64,000 bases of DNA from Bacteroidales bacterium. GTDB lineage: Bacteria; Bacteroidota; Bacteroidia; Bacteroidales; WCHB1-69. Location: positions 8,390 through 72,389 of the forward strand of contig JAFYNM010000009.1 of NCBI GenBank assembly GCA_017549765.1. Direction: 5' to 3'. This document shows positions 2,682-43,155 of this stretch, in pieces (the first letter of the stretch is position 1; every line of letters starts with the position of its first letter). Position numbers and translations under genes: made by a program. The notes under the pieces were generated by a model. That model made no database searches. It was not told where the DNA came from and saw only the letters and a program-made list of their open reading frames with translations.

Positions 2682-3764
2682 ATGAAACACATGCATACGG
2701 CTGTCGCCGTTTTATTGAATGTCCTTTTCTGCGCCGCACTGCTCTGGTTCTTCACCACAAACAGCTACCTGCGTCCCTACGCCGGCAGTGCCACCAAAGA
2801 GATCCTGGCTGCGCTGCCGCTGTTGGCATCCCTATATGCCAACTACTTTCTCCTATACCCGACATTGTACAGAAAAAGCAGAATTCCATACTGGATAACG
2901 GTGGTGGCCTTCTGTTTTGTCGCCGCGTGTCTGGATCTGGCTATCGCCTACCCGAACATAGCCCAGCGCAATGCCTTCCTTATAGAGAATGTCGGAGTCC
3001 CTCGTTTTGTTTCCAAGCATGTTCTCTTCTTATTAGGAAGGAACCTTGCATTCAACTTCTTCCCCTTCATGATTCAGGAAAGGCGGCAGTCGCAGGAGGC
3101 CTTGTCGGCTGAAGCGGCGATTGTGTACCGTGATGTCCGGCTGTTGGATGTTGTCGACGCAGAACATAATCTGTTTCTTATCCCTAAGAGCGACATTTAC
3201 TATTGTGTGCAAGATGGAAACTTCACCCGTATCTATGTGACAAAGGGCAATTTTTGCTACACGCGCAACGGCCCCATGAAACATCTTGAGCAACTCTTCG
3301 GGAAAGAGGATTTTGTCCGTATCTCCCCAAAGGTGTTGCTTCCATACCAGTACATTAGGTCTTGCCAGGGTGATGAGGTGTTCATGAAAAAGATGCCTTG
3401 GGCAGACACACCAATTTCTTTCAAGATAGAAGACCGGGACAAAGACCGGGTATCCGAGATCATCACTTTGAAACTTCATTTCGCCAAAAACCAAAGGAAT
3501 GGTGTAGGCCACAGCCCGTCACGCCGAAAACAGAAGCCCATCAAGCCTTCCCCCGAGAAGAAAGAGACGGTCCTCCGGCAGATCCGGAAACAACCGGGCA
3601 GCAGGGCCAATGCGATCGCCGAGCAGACTCAATACTCGTCGAGCACCGTGGAGCGCTGCCTTTCCGAACTCCGCAAACAGGGCCTCGTGGAGTTCCGCGG
3701 CTCCAAGAAGAAGGGGGGATACTTTGTGGTGGGAAGGGAGGAAAAGGTGATGAATAAAAGTTAA
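2682..3764 (+). CDS. membrane-anchored LytTR-domain protein with an extra C-terminal winged-helix HTH (paralog 1)
   Basis: The start is chosen at MKHMHTAVAVLLNVLFCAALLWFF because the track start 2559 is a TTG upstream of the promoter box. There are about four hydrophobic helices. The LytTR core is LFLIPKSDIYYCVQDGNFTRIYV...FVRISPKVLLPYQYI. A basic linker leads to the wHTH STVERCLSELRKQGLVEFRGSKKKGGYFVV. Confidence 0.75.
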   Translation: MKHMHTAVAVLLNVLFCAALLWFFTTNSYLRPYAGSATKEILAALPLLASLYANYFLLYPTLYRKSRIPYWITVVAFCFVAACLDLAIAYPNIAQRNAFLIENVGVPRFVSKHVLFLLGRNLAFNFFPFMIQERRQSQEALSAEAAIVYRDVRLLDVVDAEHNLFLIPKSDIYYCVQDGNFTRIYVTKGNFCYTRNGPMKHLEQLFGKEDFVRISPKVLLPYQYIRSCQGDEVFMKKMPWADTPISFKIEDRDKDRVSEIITLKLHFAKNQRNGVGHSPSRRKQKPIKPSPEKKETVLRQIRKQPGSRANAIAEQTQYSSSTVERCLSELRKQGLVEFRGSKKKGGYFVVGREEKVMNKS

Positions 3765-3781
3765 AAGTTGAAAATAAAAAT
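3754..3781 (+). repeat. short period-7 array (ATAAAAG TTAAAAG TTGAAAA TAAAAAT) overlapping the stop codon of paralog 1
   Basis: Read directly. The TAA stop (3762-3764) lies inside the unit TTAAAAG. Confidence 0.5.
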
Positions 3782-3786
3782 TACGG

Positions 3787-19400: not shown

Positions 19401-22400
19401 ATGTAATGGGCGGCATTGCCTGTCCAGTTCACCACAGCGGAAGTCTCCGTCACGTTACTAGCTGTCACATTCTCAGGAACAGCACAAATGGGCAGATCGC
19501 CACAAGGAGTGATGCTCAGTTTGATGTTCGGCACGTATGTGGAACGGGTACCGGTGTTGGTTCCCGGATGCTCCGCATAAGAAGCGTTGCCATCAGCCTG
19601 ACGATATAAGCATCTGTTGCTCTTAGAGGTGTAATAATATTTCAAGCTACCAGTGTAGTCGCTACCGGCAGCGTGAGTAACCACGATTACCAAGTTGTCC
19701 TCACCATTGTAGTTGAAGGGGTTGGTGAGCTGTCTTGTCTCCCAGCCGGTGGAAGAACCAATGGTGATGTTGTTGGCGGTATAGACTAAGGTAAGGTCAG
19801 ACAGCGGAGTCCAATCGGAAGTGGAAGCATGGATATCTTTAGTGGTATGACCCATGTAGATCTTGATTTGATCGCAGGTATAGGCGGTAGCGCTGCTCAC
19901 ATTGTAGGAAATAGCATCGATAACACCGGAGGTTCCAATTTCGGAAGCCAGATAAATACACTCATTCCAAGAGTTACCATAGTAGTTGTTGTAAGGAGAA
20001 TAGTAAGACTCCGAAGTACCCGTGCCAACAGTCAGGTTTGTCTGTGAGCCACCAGTAGAGCAAGGAACCATCACGTTAATCACGGAATAATCGCTCTCCA
20101 AAGTATTGTGGTTACAGAAGGATTTCACTCTGATCTCATAAGAGGTCGCGGTCTGCACCGGAGTGATGGTATAGGAGGGTTGGTTCAAGTCAATCTCAGA
20201 AGACCAGAGGTCAGTGCCAGCCATTCTGTATTGCAGGATCCAATGTCCGAAGTAGTCGTTGCTGGTCCAGGTCACATCGATCTGGTTGCCGTTCGGCGTA
20301 CCCGTCAAGTTGACAGGAGCGGGACATTCCACCGTGGTGGCGAAGTTCACCACATTGGAAGTGGCAGTGCCATTATCCACGGAACAATGAGCCACCACGC
20401 GCAAGTTGTAGTTGGTGGAAACTGCTAAACCGCCAATGTTCACGGGAACAGCATTGACACCTGTCATGATCGTGACCCATTCGGTAGAAGAAGCCTCTTT
20501 TATCTCCACATCATAGGTGGTATGAGGAGCCACGGTCCACTCCACATCAGCATCGAAAGCAGTCGGGGTCACCGTCACATTCTCAGGAGCACCGCAGATG
20601 GACAACGTGGTGAAAGTAGTGTTGGCATAGTCGCTGGAGGTATTGGCATCACAAACCCTCTTCACACGCACCATATACTCGGTGTTGGAGGTGAGGTTTG
20701 TCATGTTCACCGTGTTGGCCAAAGCGGAAACAGTGGTCCAATCAGTCTCTTCAGCAGTCTTGTACTCAACCTGCCACGTTACGTTCGTATCAGCAGCCCA
20801 AGCAATGGTGGCGGACTCAGCCTCGATGTTGGAAACGGCCAGATCGGCAGGAGGCATACAAGAACCAGCCACGATGGTGATATTGTCGATAGCTGCAGCA
20901 GGTTGTGTACCGCCACTATTGTCGTTCACCCAAGTGAAGACCAGTCTCTTGACGGTCTGTGTGCTCTCGCCAGCCAAAGCAACGGAAGCATGCTGCCAGC
21001 CATCGGAGAGATTGTATTTGACAATATTGTCAGAGAGTTGTTGACCAACAACCAGATCATCATTGGGATCAATCATAGAAACGGCAAAAAAGTCATACAG
21101 GGTGTATGTACCTTCACCGCCCACTCTGTAATCGAAGGAAAGGATAGCACCTTCTGCCGGGACCATCACATCCATATAGACGTGAGAAACGGACGTTGTG
21201 GCAATATCGTATTTGTTGGAGTTACCATTGTCAGACACATACAGAGCGCCAGTCTGGAAACCGGTGGGCTGACCCACATACCACTCGTTGGCTTGTGAGC
21301 TCTGATCAAAATTCCATTGGTTGGACTCGCCGTCGAAGTTTTCTGCATACGGGAGTGCCACTTCATGAAGGATGATGTCGGCGTTATTGCGCGGGAAGAG
21401 CTGTTTTTGAGCGTTGTAGGCAGCCACAAAACCGATCACATCGGCTGTCTGACCCGTCACCACGTTGGCACTCAGATTGGAAAATGCATTGTAGATGTAC
21501 AGGTTGTCAGAACCATTCTGGCTGAAGGTCACACTGTTTCTGGTGGCAGGCACAAACTGACGATTGCCTGTAAAGGTGATACCGACAATCTTCACCAACT
21601 GACCCTCATAGGTATCGTAGTTATTCAGAATATTATCGGCAGTAACCGTGATAGGATTCAGATGACCCACATTGATAATAGCTGCATCGGTACCGTGCGT
21701 GGGAACCAATTCAACCATGCCGTTATAGACAGTACGGGTTCCATACACATGCGGAATCACATCGCCTTCTTGATAGTCAGCCAGTACAGGAGTGTTATAG
21801 TCATAAATGCAAAGACCGCCAGTAGCATCCTTTACGAACACATAGCGGCCGCTCTTGAAGACAAAAGTACAGTTGGGAATATCATAAACAACATTAGACG
21901 TTCCGTTCAAACGGAAATCAGCGGTAGTAGTCACCACCGGGAAGGAATAAGTGGCTTCTGCCACAGAGCTCTCCTCGTCACCCAAAACGGCGATAGCTTT
22001 CACCGTCGTGGTGGTAGAAATATTGAGAGGCGTGGAGTAAAGAGTAGAAGCACTGGTAGGCGTGGTACCATCCAACGTGTAATAGATAGAAGCGCCAGCA
22101 GGAGCGGTCATGGAGAGGGTTACTGCCTCATATTTGAAACCGCCGGCAACAGAGAACACAGGGGCAGCCAGAGTGCCAGCCTCTTGCAACTTATAGAAAG
22201 AAAGCTCTTGTTGGCTAGTGTTGCCATAGCATGCAAAACGCGGACTTGAAGCGTTATAGCTCAAATTACGAGTATTGTAGGCCACATTGGTCAACACCCA
22301 ATTACCGTCCACATCAATGGAAGGGGTCCAGCGGGCATTGTCTGCCAACGTGCTCACCAAAATGGCGCTATTGCCACTTCCTGCATATGAGGGATACAAT

Positions 22401-22735
22401 TCTGCAGCCTCATTGTACAAGGAGATGGTGCCGTCGCCAGCAACCGTGATGTACCAAACAATGCTGGCATCGGGATTGCTGAACACCGCATCCGTCTTCA
22501 AAATGTAATTCGTGGACGTGTTGGAGTTTTGATTCAACATCGCATACTCTCCGGTCTGGTTTGTCACAACATAATAACCGGACGTCAATTCGTCCAGGCT
22601 GTTAATCTTGACAAACGTTCCTGTGCCCGAATACTGCGCCAAAAGGGTGCTCACCGTCATCAGCATCGTCAGCATCAAAACGGTCGCACTCTTCAGAGCT
22701 CTGGGTAAAGTCTTTAAAAAGTCAAACTTTTTCAT
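13409..22735 (-). CDS. 3108-aa multi-domain cell-surface protein with a T9SS C-terminal sorting domain
   Basis: Signal peptide (aa 1-34). Fn3-associated/chitobiase-C-like segment (ASIYYTLDGTTPT). About 8 FN3-like modules and 3 MAM/choice-of-anchor-like modules (YAENFDG, YTQNFDG). Two copies of a ~190-aa unknown module and two CUB-like modules. Eight ~75-aa InlB-B-repeat-like units (YTITxxAGxNGTITPxG). The C-terminal CTD is NVYIVNENGIRIDNVQIYDVYGKLLY...YLVRL. Confidence 0.9.
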   Translation of the reverse strand: MKKFDFLKTLPRALKSATVLMLTMLMTVSTLLAQYSGTGTFVKINSLDELTSGYYVVTNQTGEYAMLNQNSNTSTNYILKTDAVFSNPDASIVWYITVAGDGTISLYNEAAELYPSYAGSGNSAILVSTLADNARWTPSIDVDGNWVLTNVAYNTRNLSYNASSPRFACYGNTSQQELSFYKLQEAGTLAAPVFSVAGGFKYEAVTLSMTAPAGASIYYTLDGTTPTSASTLYSTPLNISTTTTVKAIAVLGDEESSVAEATYSFPVVTTTADFRLNGTSNVVYDIPNCTFVFKSGRYVFVKDATGGLCIYDYNTPVLADYQEGDVIPHVYGTRTVYNGMVELVPTHGTDAAIINVGHLNPITVTADNILNNYDTYEGQLVKIVGITFTGNRQFVPATRNSVTFSQNGSDNLYIYNAFSNLSANVVTGQTADVIGFVAAYNAQKQLFPRNNADIILHEVALPYAENFDGESNQWNFDQSSQANEWYVGQPTGFQTGALYVSDNGNSNKYDIATTSVSHVYMDVMVPAEGAILSFDYRVGGEGTYTLYDFFAVSMIDPNDDLVVGQQLSDNIVKYNLSDGWQHASVALAGESTQTVKRLVFTWVNDNSGGTQPAAAIDNITIVAGSCMPPADLAVSNIEAESATIAWAADTNVTWQVEYKTAEETDWTTVSALANTVNMTNLTSNTEYMVRVKRVCDANTSSDYANTTFTTLSICGAPENVTVTPTAFDADVEWTVAPHTTYDVEIKEASSTEWVTIMTGVNAVPVNIGGLAVSTNYNLRVVAHCSVDNGTATSNVVNFATTVECPAPVNLTGTPNGNQIDVTWTSNDYFGHWILQYRMAGTDLWSSEIDLNQPSYTITPVQTATSYEIRVKSFCNHNTLESDYSVINVMVPCSTGGSQTNLTVGTGTSESYYSPYNNYYGNSWNECIYLASEIGTSGVIDAISYNVSSATAYTCDQIKIYMGHTTKDIHASTSDWTPLSDLTLVYTANNITIGSSTGWETRQLTNPFNYNGEDNLVIVVTHAAGSDYTGSLKYYYTSKSNRCLYRQADGNASYAEHPGTNTGTRSTYVPNIKLSITPCGDLPICAVPENVTASNVTETSAVVNWTGNAAHYIIKVSTPNAADEIITGISGNSYTLTGLNPNETHYTVMVASQCEENTYSTYSTSASFTTGCVAMTIPYTQNFDGYAGSTASTVVSHVMPPCWSYHNAGTSYPGYPQTYNSSSYAASGVNSLRFYMYTSSGYADQYAIMPVTDVPVNQLMVNFDLRGYNTGTSYCAELEVGVMTDPTDPSTFVSLGSHYETGATTYNNYTIYLNNYTGNGQYIAFKAPKPSTGYNAFTVDNILVDYAPSCSAPTITNYNITSKLLTWTNGDMGTPQSYQVICNANGTTTNTFTFTTTEGLLMGLAGLTDYTVYVRTICGEGDTSEWSAPYTFTTPETGCTDPANLVAVVNANQDVTLTWDADPEQNTWAVYSKFSDSPVWSAPVMVTGTPTVTLSGLQTATTYDFRVSAICNNGTTESGFTYASAYIPCSTASGDPEVIVGTGTSTTYTAPFNNFYKNSRNEVIYLASEIGQAGPITSIAYNVSNAANWTASTINIYLAHTSRTTFASTTDWTPANDLTLVYSSTNQTIGSSTGWLTFDLETPFMYNGTDNLVVVVTKTCSSYNSSLKFYYTSLSNRCLYRQSDSNTAYADITNVSQSGTKTTYVPNIKFNILPPCNDPVLCEAEVTGVTTSNVTETSLTVNWTATGADSYVLEYGEEGFAVGAGTQITTTATSATINGLADATSYSFVVYPICANGNVGTPNEIVVTTGGTVVEPDVFVMGQDFNVTTCDAYIYDDGGPTGNYLTYSDETLVVTPSTPGAGLHITGTYDMEDGYDYVSIYDANNNLLAELTDYGTVDITTQGAITIVLESDGSVCYSGFAFHVECVGGEEPPVVETDVYVMGEDVNVTTCDAIIYDNGGATGNYETYSDETMVINPGVAGASLHFTGTYNMETNWDYIYIYDANNTQLYELTGSGEVDFTVNGPVTIHLESDGSVCYSGFAFNVACVIPQTINTELNGISGIADACDLSGQHITAFVTNTGIDHITSLTGTYSVNGGAVVTETFYVQLPADQGTSVTFTTPVVFTQTTGNEIEVSVYASNEPSTLWNDNTVSLTGINEIAPMTAPYPVLPVSGSQVGSDGWNVIDVYGNGVNWTISGTTMNAPHSDFVNLNNWIITPCYDLTAGMYKVTYDYKVNNSAIPESFAVYYGQGGQVADMTNLLAQYTNASNDTYLTATHYINIPADGTYNFGFLANSEAGGLGMSVKALTVKKMVTMTALANGNGTITPSGQIMATEGENVTFVMNPDANYYLQNVTLNGQIVATYGNVAQGVIYHHTVAANDVLIANFTRANLFNYVVDGGQGYVNGDFYTAPASWSETYANGEDIYITFVPDAGYHVENVNINGVDYGPITDWVITNVAHDYTFIITFAPNTYVVTTTAYGNGTVTPGATFVYDPANTYNFVATPAANAHIASILRNNEELTIVDPFSAYTETLTNILSDYNYVVRFDPNNYTVTATAGAHGTITPAGESNYVYTTDAVYAINAANGYYIASVTVDGVTTDYTQANALTSMTYTFAHISANHTISATFAQYEYTITVNAGENGTINPGTTTVGENATPTFNIVPNAGYGIADVTVDGVSVGAVTSYTFAPVSANHTIAATFAQYQYTITATAGNGGVITPNGVTNMVYNGNQTYTITPSAGYHIADVYVDGASVGAVTSYTFTGVTANHTIYAAFDINEYTVTVTQPAHGDITPGTITVQYGATPSFVITPNIGYNVTAITLNGTNVIGNTPQVNGVYTLTLPAVTANATLTATMTAKTYTITASAGANGTITPSGVATVNFGDNKSYSFTPANGYEVANVMVDGMSMGAISSYTFVNVVANHTINVTFKLQECELPTNMQTIFVDTTSATLYWYHAGAVSYDIQYKAVTDATFTTTNTTQTTYTLTGLTPSTTYIWMVRANCVANNPSDWTNGTMFRTLDVFQNPDGIEEHIKDMINVYSETNNVYIVNENGIRIDNVQIYDVYGKLLYTGSVNGTSEVISMNVATGTYLVRLATEYGTCNYKLHLTK

Positions 22736-27182: not shown

Positions 27183-27208
27183 AGTGTTAATTTTTATTAA
27201 TCGCTACC

Positions 27209-27278
27209 CTCTCATCTTCCAACTCCAAACTCCTAACTTCTAACTCCTAACTTCTAACTGACAACTGATAACTGATAA
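27209..27278 (-). repeat. array of ~10 phased heptamers abutting the yggS stop codon (mRNA sense TTATCAG TTATCAG TTGTCAG TTAGAAG TTAGGAG TTAGAAG TTAGGAG TTTGGAG TTGGAAG)
   Basis: Plus-strand units read directly: CTCTCAT CTTCCAA CTCCAAA CTCCTAA CTTCTAA CTCCTAA CTTCTAA CTGACAA CTGATAA CTGATAA. Confidence 0.85.
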
Positions 27279-27279
27279 C

Positions 27280-27951
27280 TTATTTGAAGTAGTTTCTCGC
27301 CCCAAAAATGGCGCTCCCGACCCGAACAAAGGTACTCCCCTCCTCGATGGCTATCGAATAGTCGTCGGTCATGCCCATGGAGATCTCTTTGAAATCCTCA
27401 TGATCTGCAAAAAAATCTGTCTTGAGCGATTGGAAGATGTCGTGCAGGTGGCGAAATTCCCGACGCACCTGCTCCATGTCTTCTGTGAAGGTAGCCATAC
27501 CCATCACGCCGCAAATCTTCACGTTGTGCAAAGTGGGGAAGACCTCGCCTTGGAGCATCTCGCGGCACTCCTCCAGGGTAAAGCCGAACTTGGTGGTTTC
27601 CTGCGCGATATGGAACTGGAGCAGGCAGGGGATGACGCGTTCGTTTTTCGCGGCCAGCCTGTTGACCTCCACCAACAAAGGCTCACTGTCGATGCTATGG
27701 ATCATCGACACGAAGGGGGCGATGTATTTGATTTTGTTGGTCTGCAGGTGGCCGATGAAGTGCCATTGTATATCCTGGGGCAGTACCTCGTGTTTGGCCT
27801 TCATCTCCTGGGCCTTGTTCTCGCCGAAGAGCCGCTGGCCTTCCTCGTACAGTCGTTGGATATCCTCCACAGGCTTGGTCTTGGAAACCGCAATCAGGCG
27901 AGTGCTCTCGGGCAATTGGTGTAGAATCTGATGATATTTTTCAATGTTCAT
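27280..27951 (-). CDS. yggS: YggS-family pyridoxal-phosphate homeostasis protein
   Basis: 223 aa. LIAVSKTKP (PLP-Lys), HFIGHLQTNK and VRVGSAIFG. Confidence 0.88.
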   Translation of the reverse strand: MNIEKYHQILHQLPESTRLIAVSKTKPVEDIQRLYEEGQRLFGENKAQEMKAKHEVLPQDIQWHFIGHLQTNKIKYIAPFVSMIHSIDSEPLLVEVNRLAAKNERVIPCLLQFHIAQETTKFGFTLEECREMLQGEVFPTLHNVKICGVMGMATFTEDMEQVRREFRHLHDIFQSLKTDFFADHEDFKEISMGMTDDYSIAIEEGSTFVRVGSAIFGARNYFK

Positions 27952-27983
27952 AATGACAACTTTTCCTTAACGATAAAAACGCG

Positions 27984-27991
27984 CAAAGGTA
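27984..27991 (-). promoter_or_regulatory. -7 box TACCTTTG for yggS
   Basis: The plus strand reads CAAAGGTA, ~33 nt upstream of the start at 27951. Confidence 0.55.
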
Positions 27992-27994
27992 CAC

Positions 27995-28019
27995 AAAAAG
28001 TTGATGCGTTGATTCCCAA
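27995..28019 (-). repeat. 25-nt block TTGGGAATCAACGCATCAACTTTTT (minus sense), copy 1 of a dispersed element
   Basis: 23/25 identical to 33481-33505 on the opposite strand. In both places it sits between a heptamer array and a -7 box. Confidence 0.8.
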
Positions 28020-28047
28020 CTTCTAACTCCTAACTGATAACTGACAA
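28013..28047 (-). repeat. heptamer array abutting the priA stop codon (mRNA sense TTGTCAG TTATCAG TTAGGAG TTAGAAG TTGGGAA)
   Basis: Plus-strand units: TTCCCAA CTTCTAA CTCCTAA CTGATAA CTGACAA. The priA TGA is at 28053-28055. Confidence 0.8.
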
Positions 28048-28052
28048 CTCCC

Positions 28053-30566
28053 TCACGCGTCCACATTGATCACGCACCGTACCTGCTTGTAGGCTTTCTC
28101 CTGACGGAAGTCTTGAAGTACTTCTTGAAGTTGTTGTTTATACTGCGCCAACAGGTTGTCTTTGGGAAACTTAATCCAAATGTCTTGGATAAAATAATTC
28201 TGGATGCGGGCTACCAGCGGATATTCAGGTCCCAACACCCGTTGGGGAAAGGCGGCCCTCAACATCCCGGCCAGATGGGCGGCGGCGGCCGTCACCACCT
28301 GGTCGTCGGTATGCTTCAACGACAGTTTGATGACACGCACCACCGGCGGGAAATGAAACTCCCGCCGTTCCTGTATCTGACTCCGGTACATGGCCTGAAA
28401 GTCGTTGGTCTCCACATATTGCAGGGCTGGATGCTTGGGCTGGTAGGTCTGGATGATCACTTTTCCGTCGAGACCTTTTCTGCCGGCTCGCCCGCTCACC
28501 TGCGATAGCAGCTGGAATGCCCGCTCGAAAGCGCGGAAGTCGGGAAACGACAGCAACGCATCGGCATTGAGGATGCCCACCACGCTGACCCTGTCGAAAT
28601 CCAACCCTTTGGTGACCATCTGTGTGCCCACCAAGATGTCGGTTTTATGTTGTTCGAAGTCCGTGATGATCCGCTGATAGGCATTCTTGGAACGGGTGGT
28701 GTCCAGATCCATACGGGCTACGCGGGCTTCCGGAAAGAGCTCGGCCAACGACTCCTCAATTTTCTCTGTACCAAAACCTTTCATGGAGATGTCGGTGCTG
28801 TGGCACGTAGGACACACACGCGGCACCTCTATGGCATAACCACAGTAGTGACATTTGAGCAGGTTGGTGGCCTTATGGTAGGTCAGCGTGACATCGCAAT
28901 ATTTACAGGTCGGCATCTCCTCGCAGGTATGGCAAATCATCCGCACCGCATAGCCTCGCCGGTTCTGAAATAGGATGATCTGCTCTTTCTTTGCCAGCGC
29001 CTCCTCCATTTTCTCTATCAAGAAGTCGGAAAAGACCCCATGCACTTTGCGTTGCTTGTGGGCTTCCGACATATTGACCGTCCAAATATCCGGTAGTCGG
29101 CTGTCGGCAAAGCGTTCCATTAGATTCACAAGACCATATTTGCCTTGCTCCACATTGTAATAGCTTTCCAATGAAGGAGTTGCGGTTCCAAGCAACACAT
29201 GAGCTTGATGGATATGTCCCAACATGATAGCGCTGTCGCGGGCATGATAGCGCGGGGCAGGGTCCTGTTGCTTGTAGGAGGCGTCGTGCTCCTCGTCCAC
29301 AATGATGAGTCCTAAGTTCTGATAAGGCAGCAGCAACGCCGAGCGGGCACCTAAGATGAGCTGGTACTTGGAACTGTCGGTTGCCAGATCCTGTTCCAGC
29401 ACCCGCGACCAGATCTCCACCCGCTCATACTCGTTGAATCGGGAGTGATAGACGCCCACCTTCTCCCCGAAATATTTGCGGAGGCGGTTCACTATTTGCG
29501 AGGTGAGCGCAATCTCGGGCAGCAGATAGAGCACCTGCTGACCTCTCTTCAACACCTCATCAATCAACTTGATGTATATCTCCGTCTTGCCGCTGCCTGT
29601 CACGCCGTGCAATAACGTGACCGGGTGTCCGGCCATCTGATCGTGAATGCTGTCGAAGGCCCGCAGCTGGGCTTCCGACAATAGGATATTGGCGGGCAGA
29701 TCGTGGGAGGCTATGTCTGACAACCTGGACACGACCTTCTCTTCCACCACGAGATATCCTTTCTTTATCAGGGTCTGCCAACGGGCTGGCGAGACGGCTT
29801 CCACGCTCATCAGTTGACTCTTGGGAATGACTGCCCGAAAATTGTAGTGATCTCCTTCGCGCGCCTGCATCATGAAGGCCAATAATGCATCCGACTGCGG
29901 GGCTGTACGCGCGGAAGCACCCAACGCATCCAACAAGGCCATAAAGGGTTCTTCGGCAGCATAGTCGTCGGCCAACCGGACAAAAGACTCTTTCTTAGGC
30001 ACATAAGGATTCCTGATCTCCTCATCAGTCATAATAACCTTCTTGTCCACCAACGACTTGATAATGGAGATGATCTTCTGGACTTGCACCAGCTTAGCCA
30101 CCTCATCTACCGTCATGGCCTCATGATGCACCAAGGCTTCCACAATCTGCAACTCATAAGAGTTCAGCACCGAGACGTCCCCGTTAAAGTCAGGACGCAA
30201 CTTGATCTTCGTCTCGCTAGCCAGCTTCAGGGCGGAGGGCAGGGCGCAGGCCATCACCTCGCCGAGTGTGCACATGTAGTAGTTGGCCATCCATTGCCAC
30301 AAGGCATACTGTTTCTCGGATATGACAGGACGCGCGTCCACCACATCCATCACATATTTAGCTGTCGTCTTCGGGGTCTCCGTGTGTACCCGGACTACCA
30401 AGGCGGCATAGAGCTTGCTGCGCCCGAAAGGCACGATCACCCGCTTGCCGAAGTCCATCTGTCCTTCCAAATCCACGGGCACCCGATACGTGAACAACGA
30501 GGCCACTGGCAAAGGCAGCAGCACATCCACAAAAAAGGTCTTTCTCATCGATTCCTCCATCTGCAC
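28053..30566 (-). CDS. priA: primosomal protein N' (replication restart helicase PriA)
   Basis: Walker A GVTGSGKTE and DEEHD box. The Cys-rich zinc region is CHTCEE..CKYCD...CHYCG...CPTCHS. The true start may be the internal MRKTFF. Confidence 0.9.
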   Translation of the reverse strand: MQMEESMRKTFFVDVLLPLPVASLFTYRVPVDLEGQMDFGKRVIVPFGRSKLYAALVVRVHTETPKTTAKYVMDVVDARPVISEKQYALWQWMANYYMCTLGEVMACALPSALKLASETKIKLRPDFNGDVSVLNSYELQIVEALVHHEAMTVDEVAKLVQVQKIISIIKSLVDKKVIMTDEEIRNPYVPKKESFVRLADDYAAEEPFMALLDALGASARTAPQSDALLAFMMQAREGDHYNFRAVIPKSQLMSVEAVSPARWQTLIKKGYLVVEEKVVSRLSDIASHDLPANILLSEAQLRAFDSIHDQMAGHPVTLLHGVTGSGKTEIYIKLIDEVLKRGQQVLYLLPEIALTSQIVNRLRKYFGEKVGVYHSRFNEYERVEIWSRVLEQDLATDSSKYQLILGARSALLLPYQNLGLIIVDEEHDASYKQQDPAPRYHARDSAIMLGHIHQAHVLLGTATPSLESYYNVEQGKYGLVNLMERFADSRLPDIWTVNMSEAHKQRKVHGVFSDFLIEKMEEALAKKEQIILFQNRRGYAVRMICHTCEEMPTCKYCDVTLTYHKATNLLKCHYCGYAIEVPRVCPTCHSTDISMKGFGTEKIEESLAELFPEARVARMDLDTTRSKNAYQRIITDFEQHKTDILVGTQMVTKGLDFDRVSVVGILNADALLSFPDFRAFERAFQLLSQVSGRAGRKGLDGKVIIQTYQPKHPALQYVETNDFQAMYRSQIQERREFHFPPVVRVIKLSLKHTDDQVVTAAAAHLAGMLRAAFPQRVLGPEYPLVARIQNYFIQDIWIKFPKDNLLAQYKQQLQEVLQDFRQEKAYKQVRCVINVDA

Positions 30567-30575
30567 CTCCGCCCT

Positions 30576-31706
30576 TTAGTAGGTTGCCGGCAGGATGGTG
30601 TTGTCCAACACCTGCAGAAATTGAACATTTACATTCTCATAGCCTCCGTCAGGATGCTTGTCAAAGGAAAAATAGTAAGACAAAGGCGCCACTTTGACCT
30701 GATCATGATCCATGTCGTGACGAATCAGCTCCACAAAATACCGGACAATGTCATAACCTTGAAAAGCAAAATTCTTCAAGGTCGGCAGTGTGTTGAACTG
30801 CTTGGTGAACTTATAACTGAACAACTGCACCTGCTGGCTCTCAAAATCAACATAATAATCGGAGAAGAAGTGCAAGTTCAGTTTATCGTAGTATTCCACA
30901 TCATAGGTGTTGGAGAAGATCCATTTTTCAGGGACAACCATGGTAAGATGTTTGGGGTCCACGGCCTTGCCAGAGTAAAGCAACTTCTGGGAAAGGGTTA
31001 GACTCGTTGCCTCTCCATGATTCAGCACCACCAACACATTGTGCATATCGGAACGCAAGGCGTTGAGCACTCCTTGTATGGAATTGGCAGTTTGATACGA
31101 GATATGATGGGTGGTGAAATAGGAGACATAGGATTGGTACTCCACATTCTTTTTGGTAGAATCAGCATATAGGATGATCTGATGATGCGGCATATTGTCC
31201 ACCATAAAGGCCAGTGTGGCTGGGTTTGCCTCATCGGCAGGCGTTAACTTATAGACGTATTCATTGCCATCCAGAATGTCGCTGCGGGAGGTGAAGGGGT
31301 TCACGATGGGAATCTGATAGGTCTTGGCATACTGGGCAGCTATCTGGAACGGCTTGCTGAAAAGCGGGGCTATGATCAGATCCACCTGGCTCATCAACTC
31401 CCGGTCTTCCATGATGCTTTGCAATTTGGTTTCATTGTTGGTGATATCACGCACAATGATGTTGAGTGGGATATTTTGTTCCTCGTATTCTTGCAAAGCT
31501 ATTTGGGCTCCTCCCCAAAATCCCATCATCTGAAAAGAGGGAATATTGTTCAACTCTTTGCCAGTTCGGGCAACAGCAGAAGCATTCTCGTCATAAGTTG
31601 ATGAATAGAAAGGCATTAAAAAGAGGACGGTCTTTGCCGGCTGGGCCCACATCTGGACCGACAGACACAAAAGAATCAGCCATACTATACCTATTTTTTT
31701 TCTCAT
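30576..31706 (-). CDS. secreted periplasmic-binding-protein (type 1, LivK-like) fold protein
   Basis: Signal peptide MRKKIGIVWLILLCLSVQMWAQ. The alternating beta-alpha pattern resembles PBP1 substrate-binding proteins. The start was moved downstream of the promoter box that lies inside the track's longer ORF. Confidence 0.5.
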   Translation of the reverse strand: MRKKIGIVWLILLCLSVQMWAQPAKTVLFLMPFYSSTYDENASAVARTGKELNNIPSFQMMGFWGGAQIALQEYEEQNIPLNIIVRDITNNETKLQSIMEDRELMSQVDLIIAPLFSKPFQIAAQYAKTYQIPIVNPFTSRSDILDGNEYVYKLTPADEANPATLAFMVDNMPHHQIILYADSTKKNVEYQSYVSYFTTHHISYQTANSIQGVLNALRSDMHNVLVVLNHGEATSLTLSQKLLYSGKAVDPKHLTMVVPEKWIFSNTYDVEYYDKLNLHFFSDYYVDFESQQVQLFSYKFTKQFNTLPTLKNFAFQGYDIVRYFVELIRHDMDHDQVKVAPLSYYFSFDKHPDGGYENVNVQFLQVLDNTILPATY

Positions 31707-31732
31707 CTTTGCCTGATTTATGAATAAGGCAG

Positions 31733-31740
31733 CAAAAATA
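31733..31740 (-). promoter_or_regulatory. -7 box TATTTTTG for the PBP-like/priA operon
   Basis: The plus strand reads CAAAAATA, 27 nt upstream of the ATG at 31706. Confidence 0.55.
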
Positions 31741-31927
31741 ATCATTTCTTAGATACTGGGATGCATCATCTTAAAAAAACTGTTTTTCGCGTTCTTTCTA
31801 ATAACGGACCACTGCCATTGACAATAAAAGGGGAAAAAGCCCTCCCGTTGTGGCAAGCCCTTCCCCCCTTTACTTCCTTAAATCCTTACACCCTTAACTC
31901 CTCACACATCTTCATAACTTAATAGTT

Positions 31928-32329
31928 TCACAGTTTCATCACCTTTCCCGTCTGCACGCTGCCGTTGCGGAGAGTGGTTCGTACCATATAGACGCCTGCG
32001 GGCAGGTAGCCTACATGGATGTTGGCGGTAGTGCCTTCCGGGGACAGAGTGGCCACCAGCTTGCCAAACACATCGTAGAGCTCCACGCGGGAAATATTGT
32101 CCGATGAGATCTCCACGGTGAGCACCTCGCCGACAGGGTTGGGGTAGAGCGTGATGGCTTTAGGATCCCTCTCCACTTCCATCACACCAGAAATATGTTC
32201 CATCTCAACCAAAAATATGACGCCTGTGCTTATATAAATTTCTAACACTTTAAAACACAATAACATAATCAAGCATATAATTATATTTTGAGATGGAACA
32301 AAACAGGTTTTGAGAAGGTTCATGCGCAT
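31928..32329 (-). CDS. mini-ORF consisting essentially of a T9SS C-terminal sorting domain only (possible gene remnant)
   Basis: The C-terminal ~75 aa ITLYPNPVGEVLTVEISSDNISRVELYDVFGKLVA...GVYMVRT is a canonical type-A CTD. The upstream ~55 codons are AT-rich, with a sharp composition break near 32205. No cargo domain is present. Confidence 0.5.
   Translation of the reverse strand: MRMNLLKTCFVPSQNIIICLIMLLCFKVLEIYISTGVIFLVEMEHISGVMEVERDPKAITLYPNPVGEVLTVEISSDNISRVELYDVFGKLVATLSPEGTTANIHVGYLPAGVYMVRTTLRNGSVQTGKVMKL
32210..32217 (-). promoter_or_regulatory. -7 box TATTTTTG inside the mini-ORF, directly before the in-frame ATG at 32203
   Basis: The plus strand reads CAAAAATA. Use of this box would give a signal-less ~91-aa CTD-only product. 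Confidence 0.3.
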
Positions 32330-32360
32330 GATTACGTTGCTTCCGAATTGTTTTTTTGCC

Positions 32361-32368
32361 TACTTTTG
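32361..32368 (+). promoter_or_regulatory. -7 box TACTTTTG for LytTR/wHTH paralog 2
   Basis: Matches TAnnTTTG, 27 nt upstream of the ATG at 32395. This is the same spacing as for paralog 1. Confidence 0.55.
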
Positions 32369-32394
32369 CCACCTGATCATCAATTAAAACATGT

Positions 32395-33456
32395 ATGAAG
32401 AAAAAGAACACCTTCCTTTCCGTCTTGCTGAATGTTGTCTTCTGCGCCGCCCTGCTCTGGGTTTTCACCCGGAACTCGTTCCTGCGCCCCTTCTCCGGCA
32501 GCCAGACAAGGGAGTTCCTCATGGGTGTTGTCCTGCTGGGAATCCTTTACGCCAACTTTTTCCTGCTGTATCCGAAATTGTACGGAAGGCACCCTGTTCT
32601 ATACTGTGCCGTGGTGGCAGCGGTTTCTCTCTTGTCAGGCCTCTTGGAGATAGCGGTAGCGCACAAGAACATCGAATCATGCTGCGCACCCGTCATCCAG
32701 GCTTTTGGACCCTTCAACTACTACGCCAAGGTGATCCTCTTTGTTGCCGGTCGGAACCTTGCTTTCAATCTTTTCCCGTTCCTGTTACGGGAGAGGCAGC
32801 ATCTCCGGCAAGACTTGGACGAGGAAATACAGGTCGTCTATAAGGAGGCCAGGATGCTTGACGTCATCGATACAAACAGAGCTAAAAAATGCCACCTCGT
32901 TCCCATTGACGACATCTATTATTGTGAACAGAGCGGGAACTTCACCTCCGTCCACATGGTGCAAGACAACTGTTACACCCGGCTCGGTTCCATGCGGCAT
33001 CTGGAACAGCTCGTCGGGACAGACAACTTCATCCGCATATCCTCTTCCCTGCTGCTCCCCTACCGCCACATCAAGTCATGCAACGGCAGCGAGGTGTTTA
33101 TGAAGAAAACTCCTTGGATAAAAGATCCTGGGACTTTCAAGATAGATCCAAAATCTTGCCAAGAGGTTTCCGAGGCCATCTTCCTACACTTTCAGGAGGT
33201 CAAAATTCTAAAAAAAAGGGAAATGATGGAGCGGGCCAGAAAGAAACGGAACCCGATCAAGCCCTCCCCCGAGAAGATCGAGACGGTTCTCCTGCAAATC
33301 CAGAGACAGCCCGGATGCAGGGCCAATGGAATCGCCGACCAGACCCAATACTCACTCAGCACGGTGGAGCGCTGCCTTTCCGAACTGCGCAAGCGGGGCC
33401 TCGTTGAGTTCCGCGGCTCCAAGAAGAAAGGAGGATATTGGGTAGTTGAGAGTTAA
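32395..33456 (+). CDS. membrane-anchored LytTR-domain protein with a C-terminal winged-helix HTH (paralog 2)
   Basis: Same architecture as 2682..3764: VLLNVVFCAALLWVFTRNSFLRP, RNLAFNLFPFLLRERQ, LytTR core HLVPIDDIYYCEQSGNFTSVHM...FIRISSSLLLPYRHI, and wHTH STVERCLSELRKRGLVEFRGSKKKGGYWVV. Confidence 0.78.
   Translation: MKKKNTFLSVLLNVVFCAALLWVFTRNSFLRPFSGSQTREFLMGVVLLGILYANFFLLYPKLYGRHPVLYCAVVAAVSLLSGLLEIAVAHKNIESCCAPVIQAFGPFNYYAKVILFVAGRNLAFNLFPFLLRERQHLRQDLDEEIQVVYKEARMLDVIDTNRAKKCHLVPIDDIYYCEQSGNFTSVHMVQDNCYTRLGSMRHLEQLVGTDNFIRISSSLLLPYRHIKSCNGSEVFMKKTPWIKDPGTFKIDPKSCQEVSEAIFLHFQEVKILKKREMMERARKKRNPIKPSPEKIETVLLQIQRQPGCRANGIADQTQYSLSTVERCLSELRKRGLVEFRGSKKKGGYWVVES
33257..33436 (+). repeat. 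180-nt segment ~85% identical (153/180 by hand alignment) to 3541-3720, the wHTH-coding ends of the two paralogs
   Basis: Aligned by eye block by block. The longest identical run includes gtggagcgctgcctttccgaact. Confidence 0.85.
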
Positions 33457-33487
33457 GAGTTAGAAGTTAGAAGTTTGGTGTTGGAAA
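33446..33487 (+). repeat. heptamer array overlapping the stop codon of paralog 2 (TTGAGAG TTAAGAG TTAGAAG TTAGAAG TTTGGTG TTGGAAA)
   Basis: Read directly. The TAA stop (33454-33456) lies inside the unit TTAAGAG. Confidence 0.8.
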
Positions 33488-33505
33488 TCGACGCATCAAC
33501 TTTTT
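33481..33505 (+). repeat. 25-nt block TTGGAAATCGACGCATCAACTTTTT, copy 2 of the dispersed element
   Basis: 23/25 identical to the reverse complement of 27995-28019. It is followed after 3 nt by the ridA -7 box. Confidence 0.8.
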
Positions 33506-33508
33506 TCC

Positions 33509-33516
33509 TATCTTTG
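33509..33516 (+). promoter_or_regulatory. -7 box TATCTTTG for ridA
   Basis: Matches TAnnTTTG, ~63 nt upstream of the ATG at 33579. Confidence 0.55.
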
Positions 33517-33578
33517 CCGCTCGATTCAGGGTCTTGGCCCTGATGTATCTATCTTAAAATCCTTTAAAAAACCTCTCT

Positions 33579-33953
33579 ATGAAGAAAGTCATCCACACCA
33601 ACAACGCTCCGGCCGCTATCGGCCCTTATAGTCAAGCTATTGAAGCTAACGGTATGTTGTTCATCTCCGGTCAGATACCCGTCAACCCCGCCACCGGCGA
33701 AGTCCCGGAGGGCATCACCGCCCAGACCGAACAGGTGATGAAGAACATCGCCGCCATCTTGGAAGAGGCCGGCTACTCCTTCGACAACGTGGTGAAGACC
33801 ACCTGCCTGCTCAGCGACATCGCCAACTTCGCCGCCATGAACGAGGTCTATGCCACCCGCTTCCCGTCCAACCCGCCCGCCCGCGCCGCCTTCGCCGTAC
33901 GCGACCTGCCCAAAGGCGTGATGGTCGAGATCGAAGTGATCGCGGTAAAATAG
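33579..33953 (+). CDS. ridA: RidA family (YjgF/TdcF) reactive-intermediate deaminase
   Basis: 124 aa. [11 protein letters not shown]...FISGQIP...[21 protein letters not shown]. Confidence 0.9.
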
Positions 33954-34029
33954 CTGTTGGCTGTTAGCTGTTGGCTATTAGCTTTTAGCTATGGACCAAC
34001 AGCAAAAAGCTAAAAGCCAAAGGCCAAGT
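33953..34029 (+). repeat. 11 in-phase heptamers (GCYNNNN) filling the whole ridA to ABC-F spacer
   Basis: GCTGTTG GCTGTTA GCTGTTG GCTATTA GCTTTTA GCTATGG ACCAACA GCAAAAA GCTAAAA GCCAAAG GCCAAGT, then ATG. The two halves are partly self-complementary (gcttttagct / agctaaaagc, 33981-33990 / 34008-34017). Confidence 0.85.
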
Positions 34030-35925
34030 ATGAACTACCTTACCGTCGATAAAGTCTCCAAGTCGGTGGGCGAGAAGGAACTCTTCCACCAGATCACATT
34101 CGGTCTGGAGAAGGGACAGAAGAGTGCCCTCATCGCCCGCAACGGCACGGGGAAGAGCACGCTCCTCAACATCATCGCCGGATACGACACCCCTGACGAG
34201 GGCCAGGTGATCATCCGCAATGACATCACCGTCTCCTATCTGCCCCAGATGGACAGCTTCAACGAGGACGACTCGGTGATGGAGTGCCTCTTCAACGAGG
34301 AGACCCCCATCGTCACAGCGGTGAAGGAGTACGAGACCTGTGTGACGCTGCTGGAGCAGGGCCTTCACGACCGAGTGCCCCAAGCACGCATGGACAACGC
34401 CATCCTGGAGATGGACCGCCTCAACGCGTGGGACTATGAAGCGAAGATCAAGGAGATCCTGTCGAAGTTCGGAATCAACAATATCTTCAAGAATATCAAC
34501 GAATTGTCGGGCGGTCAGCGCAAGAAGACCGCCTTGGCCAAGACCTTGATAGCCGATACCGACCTGCTCATCCTGGACGAGCCCACCAACCATCTGGATG
34601 TGGAGATGATCGAGTGGCTGGAGGGCTACCTCTCCACCGCCAACATCACCCTGCTGATGGTCACCCACGACCGCGCCTTCCTGGACAACGTGTGCAGCGA
34701 CATCTTTGAGCTGAGCAACGGCAACCTGTACCACTACAAGGGCAAATACGACTATTACGTGGAAAAGAAGACCGAGCGGCTCGCCAACGAGTCGGCGGAA
34801 TACGAGCGGTTGCGCAACCTGTATCGCCGTGAGCTGGAGTGGGTGCACACCTCCCCGCAGGCGCGCACCACTAAGGCCCGCGCCCGCATCAACAACTTCG
34901 AGAAACTGCAGGAACAGGTCAACCGAAAGGTGGAGGCCGCCCCCGAAGCTTTCAAGGTACAGTCAGAACGCATCGGACATAAAATCTTGGAAATCAGTCA
35001 CCTCGACTTTGCCTACCCCGACCAGACCATCATCCGCGATTTCTCCTATATCTTCAAGAAAGGGGAAAAATGCGGCGTCGTGGGCAAGAACGGCACCGGC
35101 AAGAGCACCTTCCTGAAGATGATCATGGGCGAGGTGCGCCCCGACGGTGGCAAGATCACCCCGGGACTCACCATCCAGTTCGGCTACTTCTGCCAGAACG
35201 ACTTCACCTACCCCGGCAACAAGATCGTGCTGGAGCTGGTCAAGGAGCACGCGGAGTACATCCGCATGGACAACGGCAACTTCATCAGTGCCGCGCAGTT
35301 CCTGAACCATTTCGGCTTTCCCTTTAAACAGCAATACACCTACTACGAAGACCTCAGCGGTGGCGAGCGCCGCAAGCTGCATCTGCTCATTACGCTGTTA
35401 AAAAATCCAAATTTCCTCATCCTCGACGAGCCCACCAACGACTTCGACATCGACACCCTCAACCTGCTGGAGGACTTCCTCACCAACTTCGAGGGCTGCA
35501 TGATCATCGTCTCCCACGACCGCTGGCTCATGAACAAACTGGTGGACCATATCTTTGTGTTTGAGGGCAACGGGGAGATCAAAGACTACTACGGCAACTA
35601 CACCGAATACCGCCAGGCCAAGGACAAACAGCTGCGCATCCAAAAGCGGGCTGAGAAGCTGCTTAGGGAGCAGGAGGCGCCCGTCAAACCCATCCGCGTC
35701 GCCAACACCAACAAACTGACCTACAAGGAGAAAAGAGAGATGGAGACGCTGGAACAGGAGATTGCCGGACTGGAGCAGGAGAAGGCCGACATCGAAGCCA
35801 AGATGAGCGCGGGGCAAGGCAGCGCCGACGACTTCGCCGCCTGGGGCAAACGATATGCCGAGATCAGCCCGATGATCGAGGAAAAAACCATGCGATGGCT
35901 GGAGTTGTCGGAGAAAGAAGGATAA
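34030..35925 (+). CDS. ABC-F family ATPase (Uup/EttA-like, no transmembrane domain)
   Basis: Two Walker A motifs (ARNGTGKST, GKNGTGKST) and two signatures (LSGGQRKK, LSGGERRK), plus a C-terminal coiled coil. The start is chosen at MNYLTVDKV because the track start 33991 lies inside the repeat array. Confidence 0.88.
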   Translation: MNYLTVDKVSKSVGEKELFHQITFGLEKGQKSALIARNGTGKSTLLNIIAGYDTPDEGQVIIRNDITVSYLPQMDSFNEDDSVMECLFNEETPIVTAVKEYETCVTLLEQGLHDRVPQARMDNAILEMDRLNAWDYEAKIKEILSKFGINNIFKNINELSGGQRKKTALAKTLIADTDLLILDEPTNHLDVEMIEWLEGYLSTANITLLMVTHDRAFLDNVCSDIFELSNGNLYHYKGKYDYYVEKKTERLANESAEYERLRNLYRRELEWVHTSPQARTTKARARINNFEKLQEQVNRKVEAAPEAFKVQSERIGHKILEISHLDFAYPDQTIIRDFSYIFKKGEKCGVVGKNGTGKSTFLKMIMGEVRPDGGKITPGLTIQFGYFCQNDFTYPGNKIVLELVKEHAEYIRMDNGNFISAAQFLNHFGFPFKQQYTYYEDLSGGERRKLHLLITLLKNPNFLILDEPTNDFDIDTLNLLEDFLTNFEGCMIIVSHDRWLMNKLVDHIFVFEGNGEIKDYYGNYTEYRQAKDKQLRIQKRAEKLLREQEAPVKPIRVANTNKLTYKEKREMETLEQEIAGLEQEKADIEAKMSAGQGSADDFAAWGKRYAEISPMIEEKTMRWLELSEKEG

Positions 35926-43083: not shown

Positions 43084-43155
43084 GGTCTTGTAGTTCAATG
43101 GATAGAACAAAGGTTTCCTAAACCTTAGATCTGGGTTCGATTCCCAGCGAGACTA
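43084..43155 (+). tRNA. tRNA-Arg (anticodon CCU)
   Basis: Folded by hand. Acceptor 7 bp with 2 G-U pairs. D stem gttc/gaac. Anticodon stem aaggt/acctt with loop ttCCTaa. T stem ctggg/cccag with loop ttcgatt. 72 nt, no encoded CCA. Confidence 0.85.

Follow-up and report, generated by a model that had tools for sequence, protein, structure and literature searches.

Why should tandem repeats with a period of 7 nucleotides (nt) begin at stop codons, and on one strand rather than the other? The question is raised by the 64-kb stretch of Bacteroidales DNA analysed here (64,000 nt, hereafter the window), in which arrays of 7-nt units follow yggS, priA, ridA and one of two LytTR paralogs. We found that anchoring of the G/purine-rich heptamer strand to the stop codon, in the sense of the upstream gene, is real and general.

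Periodicity in the window was scored in 21-nt windows with at least 17 matches, at periods 4 to 15, and 30 Markov shuffles served as control. Five period-7 runs were found (27216-27285, 28016-28050, 33443-33478, 33951-33990 and 33998-34028), and the other periods between 4 and 15 gave zero runs, except for 14, which is twice 7. The shuffles averaged 0.00 runs per period (0.03 at period 14), and Tandem Repeats Finder (TRF) recovered the same period-7 arrays with scores of 45 to 67. An earlier reading of this DNA, made from its letters (the sequence-only reading), had described such arrays after these four genes, and period scan, TRF and shuffles all bear it out; the units it listed are those of A1 below, in another register. 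The runs occupy four intergenic gaps between 27.2 and 34.0 kb, each touching or overlapping the upstream stop codon. All significant arrays of the window lie within about 7 kb (27200-34030). The arrays and the sequences next to them are the following.

A1, 27209-27279, minus strand: ten 7-nt units between the yggS stop and polA, GTTATCA GTTATCA GTTGTCA GTTAGAA GTTAGGA GTTAGAA GTTAGGA GTTTGGA GTTGGAA GATGAGA; 3 of the 71 sense bases are C.
A2, 28013-28052, minus strand: GGGAGTT GTCAGTT ATCAGTT AGGAGTT AGAAGTT GGGAA, beginning at the first base after the priA TGA (28055-28053).
A2 3' flank, 27984-28012, minus strand: TCAACGCATCAACTTTTT, then GTG, then TACCTTTG.
A3, 33443-33487, plus strand: TAGTTGA GAGTTAA GAGTTAG AAGTTAG AAGTTTG GTGTTGG AAA; 0 C in 45 nt.
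A3 3' flank, 33488-33516, plus strand: TCGACGCATCAACTTTTTT, then CC, then TATCTTTG.
A4 arm 1, 33951-33992, plus strand: TAGCTGT TGGCTGT TAGCTGT TGGCTAT TAGCTTT TAGCTAT, the first unit holding the ridA TAG stop (33951-33953).
A4 arm 2, 33996-34029, plus strand: CCAACAG CAAAAAG CTAAAAG CCAAAGG CCAAGT, ending 1 nt before the ATG at 34031.
A5, 3754-3781, plus strand: about three units, ATAAAAG TTAAAAG TTGAAAA, over the stop of LytTR paralog 1 (AGT TAA); marginal.
Purine-rich stretch, 31870-31927, minus strand: after an open reading frame (ORF) of 133 amino acids (aa); 1 C in 58 nt; not period-7.

The arrays are intergenic, or overlap just the final codons of an ORF. The yggS ORF (27951-27280, minus strand) ends at a TAA at 27282-27280, and A1 begins at the very next base, its 3' end being 26 nt from the polA ATG (27182). 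The ORF of LytTR paralog 2 stops at a TAA (33454-33456) inside the second A3 unit. In A4, arm 1 is of a CTGTTGG family and arm 2 of its inverted complement, the CCAACAG family, and the two arms form a hairpin that occupies most of the spacer between ridA and the following ABC-F gene. A G-rich, C-poor tract is present at about 5 of the 23 window gene ends that have a gap of at least 40 nt; within the window, C-poverty after stop codons is limited to the array-bearing ends, with 0 to 3 C on the sense strand of A1 to A3. Two further members proposed by the sequence-only reading fared less well. The short version after LytTR paralog 1 (A5) does overlap the stop, but its period-7 score is equalled at 130 positions of the window and is not significant alone. 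The supposed degenerate version at 31870-31927 has a period-7 identity of 0.41, is assigned period 8/16 by TRF, and is not an array of this kind; a terminator-like hairpin with a T-run lies past it, at 31846-31831. The two LytTR paralogs (3740-3764 and 33440-33456) are homologous through ...GSKKKGGY and divergent after it, and both ORFs end with AGT TAA in heptamer-like units, so that arrays seem to have replaced the original C-termini.

All four array gaps lie between co-directional genes, and the window alone therefore cannot separate an association with 3' ends from one with 5' ends. The motif TTANNAG TTAGRAG TTAGRAG TT was searched in one genome per species (185,579 species), which gave at least 120 loci; the counts that follow are among the matches listed, arrays being oriented by their TTAGRAG strand and ORFs called by a simple longest-ORF rule. 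Hosts are Nostocales (the majority), many gut or rumen Bacteroidales, Flavobacteriales, Ignavibacteria and scattered others. When the array is in sense, 47 of 72 start within 10 nt of the upstream stop of the same strand (median gap 4 nt), versus 4 of 63 antisense arrays within 10 nt of the stop they face (median gap 96 nt; Fisher p = 4e-13). The bias is found in each taxon group: 11/15 sense versus 0/12 antisense arrays in Bacteroidota, 25/40 versus 1/37 in Cyanobacteria, and 11/17 versus 3/14 in other phyla. In the commonest sense arrangement, the first TAG of the array is the ORF stop itself. Toward the 3' side distances are 96 to 111 nt overall, with a median of 111 nt to a downstream start on the same strand; those to opposite-strand starts are partly inflated by maximal-ORF calling and are not relied on. 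Arrays are almost always intergenic, with only one found inside a called ORF, and the tests of 3'-end enrichment and orientation proposed by the sequence-only reading come out in its favour. Inverted partners are also polar: of 108 TTAGRAG arrays, 25 have a partner array within 250 nt in the 3' direction and 2 have one in the 5' direction (for example L059:5483-5543, L080, L020 and L014), about three-quarters of the outside arrays being solitary. A unit-agnostic scan of relatives of the window genome agrees in direction, on a small sample, with 21 arrays with the purine-rich strand in sense, 13 of them within 10 nt of the stop, and 8 with the pyrimidine-rich strand in sense, 3 of them within 10 nt.

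Could the bias arise from ORF calling? Stop and start-codon content is equal in both array orientations, and as both are stop-rich in all frames, an artefact of this type would be symmetric, which the observed counts are not. Avoidance of Rho utilization (rut) sites was also considered as a general cause. To our knowledge Cyanobacteria lack Rho, yet their bias is among the strongest, and rut avoidance thus fails as a general explanation. The orientation rule would rather need a constraint that acts on RNA or is coupled to transcription, or else a process that generates arrays directionally, and the strand-specific cause becomes a well-posed question, testable among these three possibilities.

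The sequence-only reading had taken the arrays for cassettes placing stop triplets in all six frames. Stops in all six frames are indeed found in A1 (27209-27279), A3 (33443-33487) and A4 arm 1 (33951-33992), but A2 has one sense frame without a stop, A5 and A4 arm 2 also lack the full set, and the TTATCAG units contain zero sense-strand stop triplets. Moreover, six-frame stops are a matter of arithmetic for any 7-mer that carries a stop triplet on each strand; the antisense unit CTYCTAA has TAA in all frames, and the property therefore cannot explain the orientation bias. It is probably a by-product. Nor does the stop codon keep a phase relative to the stop triplets of the array, a relation which that reading had proposed to test: by hand tally, 3 of the 29 arrays that begin after the stop are in phase, versus about 4 expected, and there is no phase rule except for ORFs ending inside the array. 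The interpretation given by the sequence-only reading is partly supported: arrays are truly and generally associated with stop codons, in position and in orientation, but a cassette function is not established.

The yggS region of related genomes shows how such arrays evolve. The window belongs to a 119-kb metagenome scaffold (ENA ERZ28653966) of a member of the Bacteroidota: the scaffold carries genes for GldB and Por_Secre_tail proteins, the nearest YggS homologues are labelled 'MAG: Bacteroidales bacterium', and the contigs of relatives derive from ruminant and other gut or anaerobic metagenomes. Intergenic DNA of this ruminant-gut Bacteroidales genome is generally period-7-rich, and 44 period-7 arrays were counted in 483 kb of relatives. 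Five lineages with 87-93% YggS identity all carry a period-7 array at or overlapping the yggS stop. In four of the five, the gene preceding yggS also has an array at its stop; in the fifth (L214), where this gene runs off the contig, reading by eye shows an array across the 3' end of a LytTR-like frame. The units at the yggS site are GTTATCA/GTTAGGA in the window and L210, GTTGAYA in L206, RAATTAA in L202 and ATTAGCC in L214. More distant relatives (58-78% YggS identity) often have GAATTGA, or GAATGCN and CTATGGC with inverted arms, and many are without array; past the yggS stop of L132, L134, L140 and L141, array, loop and inverted array make up a hairpin. The place of the array is conserved, its unit sequence is not.

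At closer range, the unit-number polymorphism envisaged by the sequence-only reading is indeed seen, relatives and strains differing in array content and length. Homologous A1 arrays with permuted units are found in L210-L213. Between the window and L210, the yggS-polA gap differs by permuted units and a 63-nt (9x7) indel, and the following 39 nt, through the polA ATG, are identical. L202 and L203, whose YggS proteins are identical, differ by substitutions (including a priA stop that is TGA in one and TAA in the other) and by a 61-nt indel, which is not a multiple of 7; all these differences are confined to the array zone, and the last 180 nt before yggS are identical. YggS itself varies in length from 222 to 228 aa, its C-termini differing among lineages since the array contains or adjoins the end of the ORF. 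Arrays thus define or replace real stop codons, with the consequence that C-termini differ between close strains.

Arrays are also found where gene order changes. In L210 a gene for a GH92 glycosidase, and not priA, precedes the array, which stays with the yggS upstream region; together with the LytTR frame seen by eye in L214, this places arrays at synteny breakpoints. A2 and A3 share part of their flanks: a 15-mer, ACGCATCAACTTTTT, is identical in both, with one mismatch over about 20 nt, and a promoter box lies beyond it in each. Further copies of this flank were not found in the 64-kb window. We considered that A2 and A3 might be copies of a mobile element, and rejected it: the shared flank is a promoter region, and the LytTR-yggS adjacency of L214 suggests rearrangement over transposition. 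An 'array + promoter' module may have been moved by rearrangement between the LytTR and yggS loci, as these flanks suggest. Arrays mark rearrangement junctions, and sites prone to assembly failure, in metagenome-assembled genomes. Beside the array in the yggS-polA gap of L210 (L210:6036-6200, also in L211-L213) there is a G10 run, possibly a slippage tract or an assembly weak point, and the polA start is called differently in L210 and in L211-L213.

What lies on the other side of the arrays depends on the gap. The motif TAnnTTTG, which we take to be the -7 promoter box of Bacteroidetes, precedes 22 of the window's 45 gene starts at a distance of up to 120 nt (mostly 30 to 70 nt), with about 25 boxes counted there versus about 2.5 expected from its window-wide frequency. 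At A2 and A3, about 20 nt separate the 3' end of the array from such a box: TACCTTTG, after A2, is a -7 box 40 nt upstream of the yggS ATG, and TATCTTTG, after A3, is one 70 nt upstream of the ridA ATG. The former box and the 5' untranslated region (UTR) of yggS are kept in L202-L214. No TAnnTTTG was found in the yggS-polA gap (A1) or in the ridA-ABC-F gap (A4); polA and ABC-F, having no -7 box of their own, probably rely on read-through, and A1 and A4 are most likely intercistronic spacers within operons. A consensus scan for sigma-70 promoters and terminators was uninformative, the promoter type being wrong for Bacteroidetes and the terminator count at shuffle level.

RNA folding separates A4 from the other arrays. 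A1 (-9.2 kcal/mol, z +0.64), A2 (z +0.71) and A3 (z -0.91) fold at shuffle level, whereas A4 reaches -32.6 kcal/mol versus -23.3 +/- 2.7 in shuffles (z -3.5), a significant hairpin, though one without a U-run. The final A2 unit can pair with CAACTTTTT as a weak hairpin followed by a T-run; such weak hairpins with T5-6 at A2 and A3 (-6.0 and -10.5 kcal/mol, z 0.12 and -1.3) are not significant. None of A1 to A4 combines a stable GC-rich hairpin with an immediate U-run. The sequence-only reading had noted that canonical terminators are missing from the array gaps. A simple terminator scan did give no match in the four gaps, but its total over the window is at shuffle level (16 versus 18.2 expected), and A2 and A3 do have the weak hairpins just described. 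The implied role of the arrays as substitute terminators is unlikely for A1 and A4, since no box precedes polA or ABC-F. Rfam 15 at gathering score gave no family in the array gaps, the sole match in the window being a tRNA-Arg (43084-43155). G-quadruplex formation was rejected, as the window units reach at most GG and have no G3 tracts.

The arrays are heptanucleotide simple-sequence repeats (SSRs), of the class that comprises the short tandemly repeated repetitive (STRR) sequences of cyanobacteria, the long SSRs (LSSRs) of Mrazek and the TAACTGA repeats of MacGregor. Among the long microsatellites of bacteria, repeats of 7 nt form the commonest class. STRR sequences, reported by Mazel et al. 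in 1990 from heterocystous cyanobacteria with units said to be CCCCAGT, TTGGTCA and CAACAGT, are tandem heptamers dispersed between genes in several families per genome, as in the window, and Nostocales dominate the TTAGRAG matches listed; the reported CAACAGT resembles the CCAACAG of A4 arm 2, the host here being a member of the Bacteroidales. LSSRs are most commonly heptanucleotides within a range of 5- to 11-nt units, are excluded from coding DNA, and have slippage as proposed source (Mrazek 2007, as summarised in PMC4679880). The window arrays share with them a length beyond chance, a non-coding location and polymorphism between related genomes; LSSRs, however, are defined statistically, without reference to position or orientation, unlike stop-anchored arrays.

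Two published families come closer, so that the statement of the sequence-only reading that no annotated feature class matches the arrays does not stand. TAACTGA direct repeats abound between the genes of marine Beggiatoaceae, of 15 Cyanobacteria and of 5 Bacteroidetes, where other heptamers frequently accompany them and strains differ by indels in 7-nt steps; binding by S1, Csp or CsrA has been proposed for TAACTGA (MacGregor 2015, Front Microbiol 6:1397, PMC4679880). In the window, TRF gives the consensus TAACTGA on the plus strand at 27255-27280 (3.7 copies) and 28031-28049 (2.7 copies), with copies varying between TAACTGA and CAACTGA. The heptamer is thus identical to the stop-proximal consensus of the window, where it reads TCAGTTA on the sense strand directly past the stop, and intergenic location, mixed units and 7-nt indels are shared; most window units, however, are TTAGRAG. 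The BOGUAY pattern, TAACTGA in forward orientation a few nt upstream of a start, differs from that of the window, where the repeat is reversed with respect to both flanking genes, abuts the stop and lies 70 to 100 nt from the next start. This type of repeat (TAACTGA/TTAGGAG) is hereby extended from the five Bacteroidetes isolates of 2015 to uncultured ruminant-gut Bacteroidales, in which it is common.

The second family consists of the heptamers GGGAATC in Xanthomonas and GGGGA(C/T)T in Nostoc, which are placed next to stop codons on the coding strand, at 28 nt from the 5' neighbour versus 160 nt from the 3' neighbour whatever the ORF orientation (Rehm et al. 2015, PLoS One 10:e0144275, PMC4692102). 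They lie mostly between co-directional genes, occur also as tandem inverted pairs, form G-quadruplexes in vitro, and contain transcript starts and stops more often than controls (PMC4692102). Their positional rule (G-rich strand coding, array at most 50 bp from the stop or across it, and nearer to the 5' neighbour) is also that of A1 to A4 and of the outside loci. Their units carry G3-4 tracts, whereas the G-tracts of TTAGRAG, TTATCAG and CTGTTGG are shorter than 3, and the host phylum differs. The rule thereby extends to another family of units, across at least three groups of taxa; this cross-phylum strand rule, visible in stop proximity as in inverted partners among the matches listed, is robust and little known. 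Other classes were compared as well. A4 and the array/inverted-array pairs of relatives are intergenic hairpins past a stop, as are repetitive extragenic palindromes and bacterial interspersed mosaic elements (REP/BIME) and intrinsic terminators, but A1 to A3 are direct repeats without inverted arm or stable fold, and a conserved palindromic unit of 20 to 40 nt was not found in the 64-kb window. SSRs of contingency loci (Haemophilus; AGAT in Moraxella uspA2) are likewise slippage-prone and variable in unit number between strains, but they are placed within the ORF, the 5'UTR or the promoter (between its elements) of surface-antigen genes, whereas the window arrays follow the stop codons of housekeeping genes, A2 and A3 lying upstream of a complete promoter and A1 and A4 in what are most likely spacers of operons; a different number of units would there have no evident switching effect.

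How could such arrays be generated and maintained? The explanation towards which we lean, and which we hold to be somewhat probable, is that of a fast-evolving slippage microsatellite that would have no sequence-specific function and would be under a strand-specific constraint. Replication slippage on 7-nt units would create the arrays and constantly reshuffle them, and they would persist only in non-coding DNA, filling the space from the upstream stop to the next functional element, which at A2 and A3 would be the promoter box and at A1 and A4 the 5' leader of the gene downstream. Unit sequence would be functionless, the array acting as a passive, unstructured, C-poor spacer in 3' or intercistronic position. 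Stop triplets would then reflect a survivorship filter, as an array reaching the end of an ORF must end translation quickly, and would not be the purpose of the array. The G/purine-rich sense preference next to the stop would require an additional strand-specific filter or a generating bias. That units diverge freely between relatives indicates that the exact sequence is not selected, which argues against a sequence-specific binding site. A microsatellite of this kind would fit the enrichment of period 7 alone, the hypervariability and concerted evolution of the arrays, the 9x7 indel, the confinement to non-coding DNA, the unstructured RNA of A1 to A3, and the read-through that A1 and A4 probably tolerate. 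Periodicity, intergenic place, anchoring and orientation at stops, hypervariability and turnover of units are observed; slippage as the source, the lack of a sequence-specific function and the filter are inferred from them.

Four observations weigh against passive slippage. Pure slippage followed by tolerance does not predict the orientation bias of stop proximity across three taxon groups, nor the placing of inverted partners. Growth from one end, with new units joining next to the stop and old ones decaying at the far end, could have supplied a polarity but is not supported: moving outward from the perfect core, similarity to the consensus decays alike on its two sides (4.72/3.11/2.88 versus 4.54/3.30/2.70; Wilcoxon p = 0.55). 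Finally, although divergence is saturating, all five close lineages retain an array at both positions, which fits self-maintaining concerted evolution and selection for 'some array' equally.

A rival of lower standing, which we regard as possible though rather unlikely, is an element that selection maintains at the RNA level, in the 3'UTR or between cistrons. Free of C, structure and start codons and rich in stops, it would handle ribosomes or RNA-binding proteins once translation has terminated, acting as a backstop in all frames for ribosomes that read through or shift frame, as a platform of the Shine-Dalgarno-like sequence AGGAG, or as a site for a protein binding single-stranded RNA (S1, Csp or RRM-type Rbp). 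Selection would bear on position and composition and not on exact units, in line with the array position kept in five lineages as units change. Strand-specific stop anchoring in three taxon groups also points to RNA or to a transcription-coupled process, and the C-depletion of A1 to A3 has no counterpart at other window gene ends. Outside support comes from the S1/Csp/CsrA proposal of MacGregor (PMC4679880) and from a Nostoc preprint reporting reporter changes on deletion of heptamers near start codons. However, the complete divergence of units between close relatives speaks against a sequence-specific binder, and the Bacteroides paper on RRM-type proteins, which are still candidate binders, reports no binding motif. 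A backstop is at odds with A2, open in one sense frame, with the TTATCAG units, which have no stop, and with the fact that the disfavoured antisense orientation offers stops in every frame too. Lastly, the element would be dispensable, given its presence at about 5 of the 23 window gene ends and the many orthologous ends without one.

Unlikely, in our estimate, is the broader proposal that stop-anchored sense arrays are a selected, sequence-flexible 3'UTR or intercistronic module across Cyanobacteria, Bacteroidota and others, or, in a related version, the product of a strand-directed addition at ends. Such a module may be kept by position and by strand composition (G/purine-rich, C-free, unstructured), acting on the transcript or on the translation machinery that has just terminated. 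The two polarities found among the matches listed, in stop proximity and in inverted partners, lend it support, as neither slippage nor tolerance alone predicts them.

We judge improbable a role as transcription terminator or pause element, or as hairpin arm that terminates or protects 3' ends in the manner of REP/BIME. Purine-rich arrays would here halt or slow RNA polymerase after the ribosomes have left, and arrays with an inverted partner would form long hairpins. The significant hairpin of A4 suggests it, as do the array/inverted-array hairpins past the yggS stop of L132, L134, L140 and L141, and the 3' inverted partner of 25 of the 108 TTAGRAG arrays, followed in some cases (L080, L059) by a T-run; to these may be added the transcript starts and stops enriched in G-rich heptamers (PMC4692102) and the weak hairpins with T5-6 that end A2 and A3. 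But A1 to A3 have no partner arm and fold like shuffles, the A2 and A3 hairpins are not significant, the A4 hairpin lacks a U-run, and most outside arrays are solitary. Furthermore, if polA and ABC-F lack promoters of their own, transcription has to pass through A1 and A4. The absence of folding in A1 to A3 and this read-through of A1 weaken the terminator idea for A1 to A3; pairs of the hairpin type, A4 among them, are the only ones for which it is plausible.

Less probable still is that the array serves the downstream gene as an upstream element of its promoter or as a switch for phase variation, in which unit number would set geometry or occupancy near the -7 box, as in contingency loci or with TTTTGAT at ctxAB. 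The proximity of A2 and A3 to TAnnTTTG would fit, and so would the other Bacteroidales arrays that abut -7 boxes, including between divergent promoters (L010, L015, L048, L148, L149), and the L210 array that stays with the yggS upstream region despite a different upstream gene. Against this, A1 and A4 have no downstream promoter; a change of units upstream of both promoter elements leaves promoter spacing intact; and the sharply placed boundary of the arrays is the stop codon side, the next same-strand start being at a median of 111 nt. In addition, yggS, polA and ridA are housekeeping genes, atypical for phase variation.

Writing of repeats at DNA breaks (telomere-like, or by a reverse transcriptase or primase-polymerase), or an origin of the arrays as termini of a small mobile element, would yield two G-rich arrays facing each other, each anchored at a surviving flank, the geometry expected of repeats added on both 3' ends that are then joined. 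This matches the purine-rich arm being 5' in 25 versus 2 inverted pairs, the arrays at synteny breakpoints (L210, L214), the ORF 3' ends replaced by array sequence, and units that presumably resemble telomere-type repeats of T/A followed by G; we nevertheless hold it to be very improbable, as it has no candidate enzyme or element, most arrays are solitary, several unit families coexist per genome (TTATCAG, TTAGRAG and CTGTTGG in the window), which is unexpected from one templated activity, and indels in multiples of 7 with permuted units fit slippage.

Some further features were encountered in the window and its relatives. TRF lists two-copy repeats with a period of 20 to 22 at 3742-3783, 29215-29253, 32177-32219 and 35749-35788 of the window, some of them within ORFs. 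A 3108-aa ORF (13409-22735, minus strand) with fn3, CHB_HEX_C_1 and Fn3_assoc domains adjoins gldB and is kept in all close relatives. Upstream of yggS in L135, L136, L140 and L146, period-8 arrays, (ATTGTTGA)n, lie between two divergent TAnnTTTG boxes, and heptamer arrays of GAATTAT and GGAATGC are similarly placed between divergent boxes in L148 and L149; tandem arrays of this clade thus also occupy promoter-to-promoter spacers, beyond the flanks of stop codons. In L202-L204 and L210-L213, the gap upstream of yggS measures 240 to 360 nt and is a mosaic of AACTTTG, TTTCTTAA, TAACCTC, CATCGCC and AACCGTA families, in which the early purine-rich and the later pyrimidine-rich arrays are roughly complementary.

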